Shown: positions 10,361 to 60,889 of the stretch, piece after piece | How the letters are laid out: each line of letters opens with the position of its first letter | How positions within the stretch are numbered: the first letter of the stretch is position 1 | Source of the DNA: Escherichia coli | Lineage (GTDB): Bacteria; Pseudomonadota; Gammaproteobacteria; Enterobacterales; Enterobacteriaceae | Reading direction: 5' to 3' (one strand) | Assembly: GCF_024700885.2 (NCBI RefSeq) | Contig: NZ_CP117016.1 | DNA length: 64,000 nucleotides | Translations under genes and position numbers: made by a program | The notes under the pieces: model-generated | Database searches by the model: none | What the model was told of the DNA's origin: nothing | The model's input: only the letters and a program-made list of their open reading frames with translations

Positions 10361-10375
10361 GCTTTTTTATACTAA
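10361..10375. other. attL: attL core (GCTTTTTTATACTAA), followed by the lambda-like P' arm
   Basis: Core is followed by GTTGGCATTATAAAAAAGCATTGCTTATCAATTTGTTGCAACGAACAGGTCACTATCAGTCAAAATAAAATCATTATTTG, lambda attP P'-arm sequence. Confidence 0.9.
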
Positions 10376-23828: not shown

Positions 23829-24001
23829 GACGACAGCGACGAAGTATCACCGACATAATCTGCGAAAACTGCAAATACCTTCCAACGAAACGCTCCAGAA
23901 ATAAACGCAAGCCAATCCCAAAAGAATCTGACGTAAAAACCTTCAATTACACAGCTCACCTGTGGGATATCCGGTGGCTAAGAAATCGTGCGAGGAAATG
24001 A
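23825..24001 (+). CDS. ninD: NinD-like small zinc-finger protein
   Basis: Internal start [34 protein letters not shown]...; lambda nin-region small protein. Confidence 0.7.
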
Positions 24002-24381
24002 CAATGGATTATTCACAGTTAAGTGATTTTGAAATTAACAAGCGAGTGGCAATCGCAAATGGACTTTTGGTTCAGGGCATTGATGATAGTAAAGCCACTG
24101 GAATGACTAGCAAATATCACGAACTCCGGCCGCACACTGTTTGGGTGAGTGATGGTAAAAACCCATGGGTGCAATATGCACCAACTCTTTGCTGGGAGGA
24201 TGCTGGACCTGTCATCTTGAAGAATCGCATCAGTCTTGTTTGGGATTGCGCTGAAGATGGCAGTTCTGAATGGTGGAATTCTGTTGATCAGTTCGATTCT
24301 TGCCGAGTTCAGTACCAGTCTAATCCCCTCCGCGCCGCCATGATTGTATTTCTCATGATGCAGGACGCCAATAATGCTTAG
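23998..24381 (+). CDS. nin-region hypothetical protein
   Basis: ORF starting [26 protein letters not shown]...; no recognised domain. Confidence 0.5.
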
Positions 24382-24559
24382 CCCATCCCAATCCCTTCAA
24401 TACCAGAAAGAAAGCGTCGAGCGGGCTTTAACGTGCGCTAACTGCGGTCAGAAGCTGCATGTGCTGGAAGTTCACGTGTGTGAGCGTTGTATATATGAAT
24501 GCTTAAATATGGTGGAACATAATGAGAAATATAAGCAACATAGACGAATTAAGAAATAA
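24374..24559 (+). CDS. ninF: NinF-like protein with 3' end displaced by an insertion
   Basis: N-terminal 35 aa ([37 protein letters not shown]) match lambda NinF as recalled; the remainder is unrelated, and the expected NinF C-terminus (CAELMSDPNSSMYEEEDDE) is encoded at 25030..25086 in another frame. Confidence 0.6.
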   Translation: MLSPSQSLQYQKESVERALTCANCGQKLHVLEVHVCERCIYECLNMVEHNEKYKQHRRIKK

Positions 24560-25031
24560 ATTATCATATGATGATGTTTTAGGTGTGCTTAGATGGAAAG
24601 TGTCTCCTTCTAATAATGTTAAGGTTGGCAGTGTTGCTGGTTACATTAGGAGTGATGGTTATAGGATGTTAACTATCGATGGTGTAATTACTTATGCTCA
24701 CCACGTTATATGGATGATAAATAATGGTGAGATTCCATTAGGGTATAAAATTGATCATATAAATGGAGTAAGGTCAGATAATAGGCTATCTAATCTTCGA
24801 TTGGTTACACACCAACAGAATGCACAGAACCAAAAGAGAAAAATAACCAATTCGTCAGGAGTGACTGGAGTATATTTCAATAAAGAGAGATGTAAGTGGA
24901 TTGCGAATATATGCGTAGATGGGCGCACCAAATATCTTGGAATATTTGCAAGCATCATTGACGCTATTGCAGAAAGGAAGAGGGCAGAAAAAGAACTGGG
25001 TTTTCATGAAAACCATGGCAGACCATAACTG
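24487..25031 (+). mobile_element. Inserted free-standing HNH endonuclease cassette inside ninF (approximate boundaries)
   Basis: AT-rich ~0.55-kb segment with its own RBS and ORF, flanked by the two halves of ninF. Confidence 0.5.
24522..25028 (+). CDS. HNH homing-type endonuclease
   Basis: 168-aa ORF with HNH motif (YKIDHINGVRSDNRLSNLRLVTHQQN) and AP2-like segment (GVTGVYFNKERCKWIANI). Confidence 0.8.
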   Translation: MRNISNIDELRNKLSYDDVLGVLRWKVSPSNNVKVGSVAGYIRSDGYRMLTIDGVITYAHHVIWMINNGEIPLGYKIDHINGVRSDNRLSNLRLVTHQQNAQNQKRKITNSSGVTGVYFNKERCKWIANICVDGRTKYLGIFASIIDAIAERKRAEKELGFHENHGRP

Positions 25032-25081
25032 CGCAGAACTGATGAGCGATCCGAATAGCTCAATGTACGAGGAAGAAGACG

Positions 25082-25351
25082 ATGAGTGATTTCTCTGAGC
25101 TTATTTCCTTCAAAAAAGACAGAGAAGAAATGCGGACTGAATCTGTCTATTACGTTCAACACCGGAATAAACGCTCTGTGCTTGATCAGGAGCTGGTTAT
25201 TACCGGAGACCTGGCATTCAGAACATATAAGGCCAGCATGGAAATGAAGGATTTCCCTAAATGTGGTTCTGAAAGAGAAGCCGCGTTAAAGCTGGCAGAG
25301 TGGATGCAGAGAATGGCTGCTGCAATTGAGAATTACTGGAGCGAACCATAA
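25082..25351 (+). CDS. nin-region hypothetical protein (89 aa)
   Basis: ORF with ATGA overlap to the ninF remnant stop. Confidence 0.5.
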   Translation: MSDFSELISFKKDREEMRTESVYYVQHRNKRSVLDQELVITGDLAFRTYKASMEMKDFPKCGSEREAALKLAEWMQRMAAAIENYWSEP

Positions 25352-25641
25352 TGGCTAACCTACGCAAAGAAGCACGCGGCAGAGAATGCCAGGTACGTAT
25401 TTACGGCGTATGCAATGGCAATCCTGAAACTACAGTTCTGGCACATTACCGGATGGCTGGAATTTGCGGAACGGGAATGAAACCTGACGACCTGATCGGT
25501 GCATGGGCTTGTAGCGCGTGTCACGATGAAATCGACCGACGTACCCATAACCTCGACAACAAAGACGCCAGACTTTACCACCTCGAAGGCGTGATCAGGA
25601 CGCAGGCGATACTGCTGAGGGAGGGGAAGATTAAGCCATGA
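25351..25641 (+). CDS. nin-region Cys-rich hypothetical protein (96 aa)
   Basis: ORF with Cys/His cluster (CQVRIYGVC...CSACHDEID). Confidence 0.55.
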   Translation: MANLRKEARGRECQVRIYGVCNGNPETTVLAHYRMAGICGTGMKPDDLIGAWACSACHDEIDRRTHNLDNKDARLYHLEGVIRTQAILLREGKIKP

Positions 25642-27079: not shown

Positions 27080-27154
27080 GGGTCAGTCGTATAAAGGTCA
27101 TTACGGAAGGCTGTTAACCTTCTTATCGTGGTTCGAGTCCACGCTGTCCCGCCA
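27080..27154 (+). tRNA. tRNA-like gene, anticodon GTT (Asn-like)
   Basis: Hand-folded cloverleaf: acceptor GGGTCAG/CTGTCCC (one mismatch), anticodon stem GAAGG/CCTTC with loop CTGTTAA, T-arm CGTGG-TTCGAGT-CCACG, discriminator G and CCA. Confidence 0.5.
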
Positions 27155-27159
27155 AATAT

Positions 27160-27235
27160 GCTGGTTTAGCTCCAATGGTAGAGCAGTCGCCTTGTAAACG
27201 AATGGGTAGCGGTTCAAGTCCGTTAACCAGCACCA
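27160..27235 (+). tRNA. tRNA-like gene, anticodon TGT (Thr-like)
   Basis: Acceptor GCTGGTT/AACCAGC, canonical D-arm GCTC-CAATGGTA-GAGC, T-arm AGCGG-TTCAAGT-CCGTT, CCA end; anticodon stem has two mismatches. Confidence 0.5.
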
Positions 27236-51370: not shown

Positions 51371-51385
51371 GCTTTTTTATACTAA
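51371..51385. other. attR: attR core (GCTTTTTTATACTAA), preceded by the lambda-like P arm
   Basis: P-arm sequence (CTGTTACAGGTCACTAATAC...TTGATTCATAGTGACTG...) upstream; bacterial flank CTTGAGCGAAACGGGAAGG downstream. Confidence 0.9.
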
Positions 51386-60705: not shown

Positions 60706-60889
60706 TTAACCTGCCAATATTGAGGATACAAACTATTTTCTTCTACCTCTAAAGGATGATGTACGCTATGCCTCTCTGATGATGTATATCAAAGTAAAAC
60801 CGCCATTTTCCCTTATTCTGTAGCGAAATAGCACGATCATGACGCTATATACATGATTACATAGCGAAAGTGTGGATGGTAAAAATCTC

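Follow-up and report, generated by a model that had tools for sequence, protein, structure and literature searches.

A 539-bp segment of foreign base composition interrupts ninF in a P22-like prophage of Escherichia coli, and we interpret it, with a probability of about 80%, as a free-standing homing endonuclease gene (HEG) of HNH_3 plus AP2-fold type, inserted in a dispensable zinc-knuckle gene of the delayed-early nin operon. The segment lies in a 64,000-nucleotide stretch of contig NZ_CP117016.1 (assembly GCF_024700885.2), hereafter the window, to which all positions refer unless a locus is named (Table 1). When the segment was aligned with uninterrupted ninF genes from lambda, SPN9CC, several E. 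coli prophages and more than 113 IMG/VR loci, the insertion proved precise, falling on the codon boundary between Cys39 and Cys40, within the codons for the second CxxC of NinF. The GC content is 35% in the insert (33–39% across the segment) versus approximately 49% in the 3 kb on each side. A first-pass annotation, made from the sequence alone, had proposed a free-standing HEG-type insertion into a phage gene, and this proposal is supported: in lambda and the other genomes compared, ninF is contiguous. Its boundaries, 24487–25031, were within 4 nt of the true junctions, 24491–25029. The position of the insert carries a 1-nt ambiguity, 24490–25028 being equally possible.

In silico removal of 24491–25029 restores an in-frame NinF of 58 aa, identical to that of E. 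coli W284 save for H38R. The host gene is a collinear match to the NinF family (Pfam PF05810, phrog_672). The open reading frame (ORF) that starts at 24374 matches phrog_672 over positions 1–44 of 58 (E 2.8e-24), follows NinF through codon 39 (...VHVCERC, ending at 24490) and then enters AT-rich sequence up to a stop at 24559. The first-pass annotation had equated its first 35 codons with lambda NinF; the resemblance to NinF extends further than that, but the rebuilt protein, collinear with lambda NinF throughout, is identical to it only at residues 13–37, the first 12 residues forming a P22-type N-terminus. The divergence into AT-rich sequence was correctly noted, as was the NinF C-terminus, which resumes after the HNH stop in a different frame.

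The gene is thus lost in its intact form, and its 5' part retains all four cysteines. Joined to 22 codons derived from the insert, this part is annotated as a 61-aa 'protein NinF' (WP_032192604.1), and the 3' remnant is labelled a partial NinF pseudogene by the Prokaryotic Genome Annotation Pipeline (PGAP). 3' of the junction, the remnant lacks a start codon, and the sole nearby in-frame ATG, at 25015, lies within the HNH coding sequence and lacks a Shine-Dalgarno sequence. Given this, the acidic 19-codon NinF tail is probably no longer made. Only a small polar effect is expected on the next gene, since it has its own GAGGA Shine-Dalgarno sequence. The nin region is dispensable in lambda (nin5 deletion), so an insertion without an intron would be tolerated here. 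A target-site duplication was considered and rejected: the last 9 nt of the insert, GACCATAAC, agree with the target, GAGCACTGC, at 5/9 positions, which is not above chance.

Table 1. Features of the interrupted ninF locus, its prophage and related nin regions (window positions unless a locus is named).
Feature	Position	Strand	Remarks
Lambda attachment (att) core, 15 bp	10361-10375 and 51371-51385		GCTTTTTTATACTAA; flanks the prophage on both sides
ninF 5' part, codons 1-39	24374..24490	+	both CxxC pairs (CANC...CERC); collinear with uninterrupted ninF to TGT 24488-24490
Di-codon GAG CGT (E37 R38)	24482..24487	+	just 5' of the junction Cys codon; allele found only beside the insert
Inserted element, 539 bp	24491..25029	+	31-nt leader + HNH ORF + 1 nt
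Insert-derived 22-codon tail joined to the ninF 5' part	24491..24559	+	IYECLNMVEHNEKYKQHRRIKK, then stop; 38-nt overlap with the HNH start
Shine-Dalgarno-like GGTGGA	24511..24516	+	5 nt upstream of the HNH ATG
HNH homing-type endonuclease gene	24522..25028	+	168 aa + TAA; stop 1 nt before the junction
HNH_3 catalytic motif, residues 58-102	24693..24827	+	Pfam HNH_3 (PF13392)
C-terminal AP2-fold DNA-binding domain (predicted), residues ~112-159	24855..24998	+	three strands + helix in the model
ninF 3' remnant, 19 codons	25030..25089	+	CAELMSDPNSSMYEEEDDE, then stop; third frame, differing from ninF 5' part and HNH gene
Next nin gene, 89 aa, phrog_1258	25082..25351	+	ATG overlaps the ninF stop; GAGGA 8 nt upstream
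Other nin HNH_3 gene, ybcO-rusA	L013/L014 5053-5577		
Other nin HNH_3 gene, ninB-ninE	L014 3081-3683		
Other nin HNH_3 gene, upstream of ninB	L015 2768-3253		
Other nin HNH_3 gene, after Q	L005 5036-5548		
Other nin HNH_3 gene, dnaB-ninB	L004 101-712		

The insert is free-standing rather than part of an intron or intein, given that it consists of 31 nt, an ORF and 1 nt, is out of frame with ninF and yields no Rfam match (none at E ≤ 1 in 24000–25500). A group I intron was rejected since the 31 + 1 nt of non-coding sequence hold no Rfam ribozyme core, and an intein since the locus has three ORFs in three frames, 539 is not a multiple of 3, and the HNH ORF has its own start and stop. These features also count against a group I intron or intein as an overall explanation of the locus, which we regard as vanishingly improbable. 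The same applies to the idea that the interruption came first and was later deleted to give contiguous ninF: for each interrupted copy there are approximately 20–50 contiguous ones, the contiguous form defines the NinF family, the GC content of the insert is foreign, and its relatives are HEGs found in unrelated phages at unrelated sites. Nor is this a terminase-associated HNH gene of the HK97 gp74 type, as the packaging genes begin approximately 5.4 kb downstream (from about 30414) and the HNH gene lies in the nin region.

The first-pass annotation described the 168-aa product as an HNH/AP2-type endonuclease with its own ribosome-binding site, and the profile searches, the structural model and the GGTGGA before the start codon all agree with this. 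The protein matches Pfam HNH_3 (E 1.9e-19, model positions 2–46 of 46) and phrog_99, 'HNH endonuclease' (E 3.4e-70). Its direct match to Pfam AP2 is weak (E 0.083), and at least 15 homologues have a precomputed match to PF00847 (AP2). Among the PADLOC models, those for 'homing endonuclease' (HEase) matched the protein and no other defence-system model did. Residues D78, H79, N91 and N100 align with D74, H75, N87 and N96 of I-HmuI, the sole solved relative found by sequence; across 46 aligned homologues, D78 and N91 do not vary, and H79 and N100 show conservation of at least 90%. Carrying the roles over from I-HmuI, we take the catalytic histidine to be the general base and the aspartate and asparagine to bind the metal.

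An AlphaFold model built on the 46-homologue alignment reached a mean predicted local distance difference test score of 89.8. Its best Foldseek match in the PDB was I-HmuI (1U3E; E 8e-4, probability 1.00), with a template modelling score of only 0.46 because the domain arrangement differs between the model and I-HmuI. The C-terminal module, which the model forms from three strands and a helix at residues 117–159, matched the AP2 domains of plant and apicomplexan proteins (7ET4, 1GCC and 3IGM, root-mean-square deviation ~2–4 Å), as well as the arm-binding domain of lambda Int. As modelled, the product has the HNH_3 plus AP2-fold architecture of known HNH-AP2 homing endonucleases. Relatives of the protein occur in 3,805 of 50,697 phage records, in up to six places per genome among the matches listed; the closest, at approximately 50% identity, belong to virulent siphoviruses of Klebsiella and Escherichia.

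The 168-codon ORF is intact in 39 of the 41 full copies, the two others being disrupted by an IS3-family insertion sequence (L007) and by a frameshift (L050). The disrupted copy, in E. coli Eco_70239 (L007, 1526–3401), presents nested mobile elements: an IS3-family element inside the HEG inside ninF. Within the clade, 16 synonymous and 11 non-synonymous polymorphisms over ~106 and ~398 sites, respectively, give a ratio of non-synonymous to synonymous polymorphism (pN/pS) of ~0.18, a value biased downward by the loci retrieved via exact protein identity. A single diverged relative, 85% identical (P0031; L022, 1–909, a Logan contig from SRR25288770), sits at the same junction, TGT followed by ATATATG, in a diverged ninF (…IHVCEKC). 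Between it and the window gene, the ratio of non-synonymous to synonymous divergence (dN/dS) is 0.066, with dS ~1.3. Since L022 shares the site at this divergence, the association of the gene with the site is old, and the ORF has been under purifying selection throughout. L022 also has a 27-nt deletion relative to the window that removes the stop, so that a 176-aa ORF crosses the ninF remnant to the start of ybcO.

Some public annotations could be taken to indicate degenerating copies. We rejected this notion: PGAP labels the HNH gene a partial pseudogene in E2348/69 (L003, 6177–6326) and ETEC4091 (L006, 3033–3278), yet the 168-codon ORFs are intact in both. In several GenBank records, the gene range spans from the HNH start to the ninF stop, and the overlap of the NinF fragments has probably produced the pseudogene labels as an annotation artefact. 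Within the 90% cluster of the protein, several truncated members bear the name 'serine/threonine protein phosphatase, partial' at NCBI, a name probably carried over from a neighbouring nin gene.

The insert shows presence/absence polymorphism at one precise site, with 49 occupied versus more than 230 empty loci. Of 5,426 complete E. coli genomes, 44 carry it, at 46 places in total and in each case with NinF fragments on both sides, whereas the empty-site query found 2,183 places in 1,732 of these genomes. In IMG/VR, where the sample was anchored 45 nt upstream of the insertion site, 6 of 119 ninF loci were occupied. Among 50,697 phage GenBank records, none carried the insert DNA, and 225 carried uninterrupted ninF. 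In a large protein collection, 3,440 blocks index this exact 168-aa protein; the source names are E. coli and E. albertii for this protein and Salmonella enterica for the 61-aa NinF fragment with its insert-derived tail. In loci with the Salmonella-named fragment, the insert differs from that in the window by 2 nt and the HNH protein is identical. All 49 occupied loci examined share the same junctions, GAGCGTTGT followed by ATATAT at the left end and CCATAAC followed by TG(C/T)(G/A)CAG at the right. The backgrounds are diverse: occupied loci carry lambda-type or P22-type ninF N-termini, several C-terminal variants and at least eight different genes downstream, including ninG, genes for 70-aa, 89-aa and 130-aa products and an antirepressor gene.

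The two codons immediately 5' of the junction cysteine are hypervariable in empty alleles. Across 113 empty ninF genes, whose sampling was unbiased at this site, the summed nucleotide heterozygosity of these codons was 1.34 and 1.01, versus at most 0.3 for each other codon from -14 to +17, one linked third position reaching 0.46. Empty sites carry GAGCAC (EH), TCCGAT or TCAGAT (SD), GAAGCG (EA), GAGTAC (EY), GCCGAT (AD) and GATCAC (DH), alleles that differ at up to 5/6 bases within otherwise near-identical sequence (loci L055–L205). GAGCGT was present in all 49 occupied sites and in none of the sampled IMG/VR empty sites (0/113 and 0/120), and empty ninF with GAGCGT had no exact match in the 5,426 E. 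coli genomes, the nearest sequences having at least 2 mismatches (CACTGT, GATCACTGT and TCCGATTGT). The 85% relative, L022, has GAGAAA (EK). Possible causes are free variation at the zinc-knuckle 'xx', short patches of conversion and evasion of the endonuclease. E. coli E2348/69 (NC_011601.1) carries an occupied ninF (L003) together with a second prophage whose empty ninF has the rare EY allele, GAGTAC (L005), an anecdotal instance of the pairing that escape alleles would predict.

If the element is an active HEG, its cycle may be outlined as follows. Because no promoter is predicted inside the insert, the HNH gene would be transcribed by read-through from the early-right operon, and it would be translated from its own Shine-Dalgarno sequence. 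When HEG-carrying and HEG-free lambdoid genomes replicate in one cell, after co-infection or once a polylysogen is induced, intact ninF would be nicked or cut by the enzyme around the point where GTGTGTGAGCACTGC meets TGCGCAGAACTG, and recombinational repair would copy the HEG from the occupied allele; the phage proteins RecT, NinB and RusA could assist. Copying by repair without an intron has been termed 'intronless homing' (PMC2988022). The occupied allele would be immune since the insertion splits the site, possibly also through the linked CAC-to-CGT change. At the HNH start, the diverged relative L022 has AGGAG in the equivalent Shine-Dalgarno place. The RNA around this start (24466–24540) is predicted to fold at -18.7 kcal/mol (z = -3.0 against shuffles), with the Shine-Dalgarno sequence in a loop and the AUG in a stem. 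A hairpin hiding the start, similar to those of T4 HEGs, was considered and treated as not conserved, as the L022 sequence gave z = +0.6 and a different structure.

Several points weigh against an active HEG. The endonuclease activity and its target are inferred, and to name the junction as the target is a guess, as the cleavage sites of free-standing HEGs often lie far from where the genes themselves are inserted (PMC2988022). On the + strand of the insert, promoter prediction gave no promoter and fewer sites than in shuffled controls. The insert is rare (~1–5% of ninF loci) and absent from sequenced phage isolates, unlike a strongly driving element. The near-uniformity of the insert, with a mean pairwise difference of 0.5% versus 4–13% in the adjacent ninF, lends homing indirect support, as do the many backgrounds and the purifying selection, but this low diversity stems in part from sampling by exact protein identity (loci L008–L017 and L206–L209). 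Empty ninF is mosaic too, with N-terminus type, di-codon allele and C-terminus type occurring in all combinations. Given that exchange at a scale of ~50 bp occurs in empty ninF, a single ancient insertion could have reached many backgrounds without homing, and fine-scale recombination within ninF explains the spread over backgrounds equally well. For the same reason, an attempt to tell repeated homing from recombination by flanking haplotypes was abandoned as impossible, the empty alleles being equally mosaic.

These points lend themselves to a different account, in which the insert is a passenger relic of one ancient insertion that no longer homes and is moved only by homologous recombination among lambdoid nin regions. 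Exchange at the 50-bp scale without the HEG, in all combinations of N-type, di-codon and C-type among empty sites, would suffice to distribute it; its low frequency and its absence from phage isolates fit a relic, and the complete linkage of GAGCGT to the insert fits one origin. A relic would not, however, be expected to keep its ORF by selection, as indicated by the dN/dS of 0.066 against L022 and by the pN/pS within the clade, nor to remain intact in 39 of 41 copies with conserved catalytic residues, and we therefore consider this account unlikely. The same long purifying selection would suit a nuclease that has been domesticated or weaponised, that is, kept for a benefit to the carrier phage, such as cutting rival lambdoid phages or prophages at ninF (marker exclusion). 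Polylysogens with occupied and empty ninF do exist, as in E2348/69, where the co-resident allele is the rare EY, the strong variability of the di-codon in empty alleles is what selection for escape from cleavage would produce, and HEG domestication has been discussed for phages (PMC10448857). In silico, however, such a role is inseparable from homing, since a rival is cut and converted in one and the same act; only 'homing endonuclease' defence models were matched, and there is no partner gene. Domestication thus appears improbable to us, and we retain a free-standing HEG inserted in ninF as the preferred interpretation.

An extension of the homing interpretation would link it to the di-codon through an arms race. 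The enzyme would recognize or cut the bases of the second-CxxC 'xx' and thereby drive the escape alleles (EH, SD, EA, EY, AD and DH) in empty sites, with ER and EK immune; the HEG, kept by selection, would then actively drive lambdoid nin mosaicism across E. coli, E. albertii and Salmonella. At this point, we regard this scenario as tentative and rather doubtful, and the hypervariable target di-codon as the one lead worth an experiment.

The host prophage measures 41 kb and combines a lambda-type integrase with P22-type virion genes. Its integration site, att-lambda, lies between ybhC and ybhB. Its nin region reads ninB, ninE, ninX, ninF, a hypothetical gene, ybcO/DUF1364, rusA, ninH and Q. 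The DUF1364/YbcO gene (25351–25641), two genes 3' of the insert, matches phrog_131, which also bears the label 'HNH endonuclease' (E 7e-50); its product is rich in Cys and His and is kept in nearly all related nin regions. Between the Q-like antiterminator gene and the prophage holin gene lie tRNA-Asn(GTT) (27080–27154) and tRNA-Thr(TGT) (27160–27235). Compared with E. coli MLI114 (NZ_CP117013.1, 3536397–3600396, reverse complement), the window shows a single mismatch, at 60757.

The class of element is textbook knowledge, and the ninF case is a clean but ordinary example of it. In public genomes, the NCBI pipeline already labels the arrangement as two NinF fragments with an HNH endonuclease between them; in the literature on ninF with HNH, on homing endonucleases of lambdoid nin regions and on ninF itself, we found no description of the insertion. 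HEG biology is known mainly from virulent T4-like phages, and the locus adds a clean natural case of an intron-less HNH-AP2 HEG inside a coding sequence of temperate lambdoid phages. It also accounts for an annotation that recurs in thousands of enterobacterial assemblies, 'split NinF / HNH pseudogene'. With E. coli K-12 as host, a dispensable target gene and natural occupied and empty alleles, the system is tractable, and it could be used to ask whether homing feeds lambdoid nin mosaicism and whether target hypervariability reflects escape from cleavage.

I-HmuI of Bacillus phage SPO1 (1U3E) is a nickase encoded within a group I intron of a DNA polymerase gene. The ninF HNH protein resembles it in the catalytic motif, in size (168 versus 174 aa) and in being encoded by a phage; the two are ~23% identical, the C-terminal AP2-fold module of the ninF protein differs from that of I-HmuI, and the ninF HNH gene, unlike the intron-encoded I-HmuI gene, is free-standing. 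HNH-AP2 homing endonucleases have been described in cyanobacteria, protists and phages. Phage examples include the 'IPA-HNH' HEGs of ICP1-like phages (PMC10448857) and those of Xanthomonas phages (PMC2248197). These share with the ninF gene an N-terminal HNH and a C-terminal AP2 domain and the free-standing state. The IPA-HNH domains of ICP1 are too diverged for Pfam HNH_3 (PMC10448857), whereas the ninF protein matches HNH_3 strongly, and those HEGs have mostly been described beside essential genes of virulent phages, whereas the ninF HEG lies inside a dispensable gene of temperate lambdoid phages.

In mechanism, the closest analogues are mobE in nrdA of Aeromonas phage Aeh1 and mobA in T4 gene 60 (PMC2988022). 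As in ninF, an HNH HEG with its own translation signals has entered a coding sequence without an intron, its insertion point lying in the codons of a motif that matters for function, and the host gene is split into two ORFs. For mobE and mobA, the interrupted genes are essential, and the two parts of each are expressed and reassemble, whereas ninF is dispensable and its 19-codon 3' remnant is probably lost. Other HNH_3 genes of lambdoid nin regions belong to the same family (Table 1). Those at ybcO-rusA, upstream of ninB, after Q and at dnaB-ninB are 37–49% identical to the ninF HNH protein; with the ninB-ninE gene included, the range is 27–49%. They are intergenic, the ninF HNH gene being the sole intragenic case among those seen. 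With these additional HNH_3 genes lying between the nin genes of related lambdoid prophages, free-standing HEGs seem to have a hot spot in the nin region.

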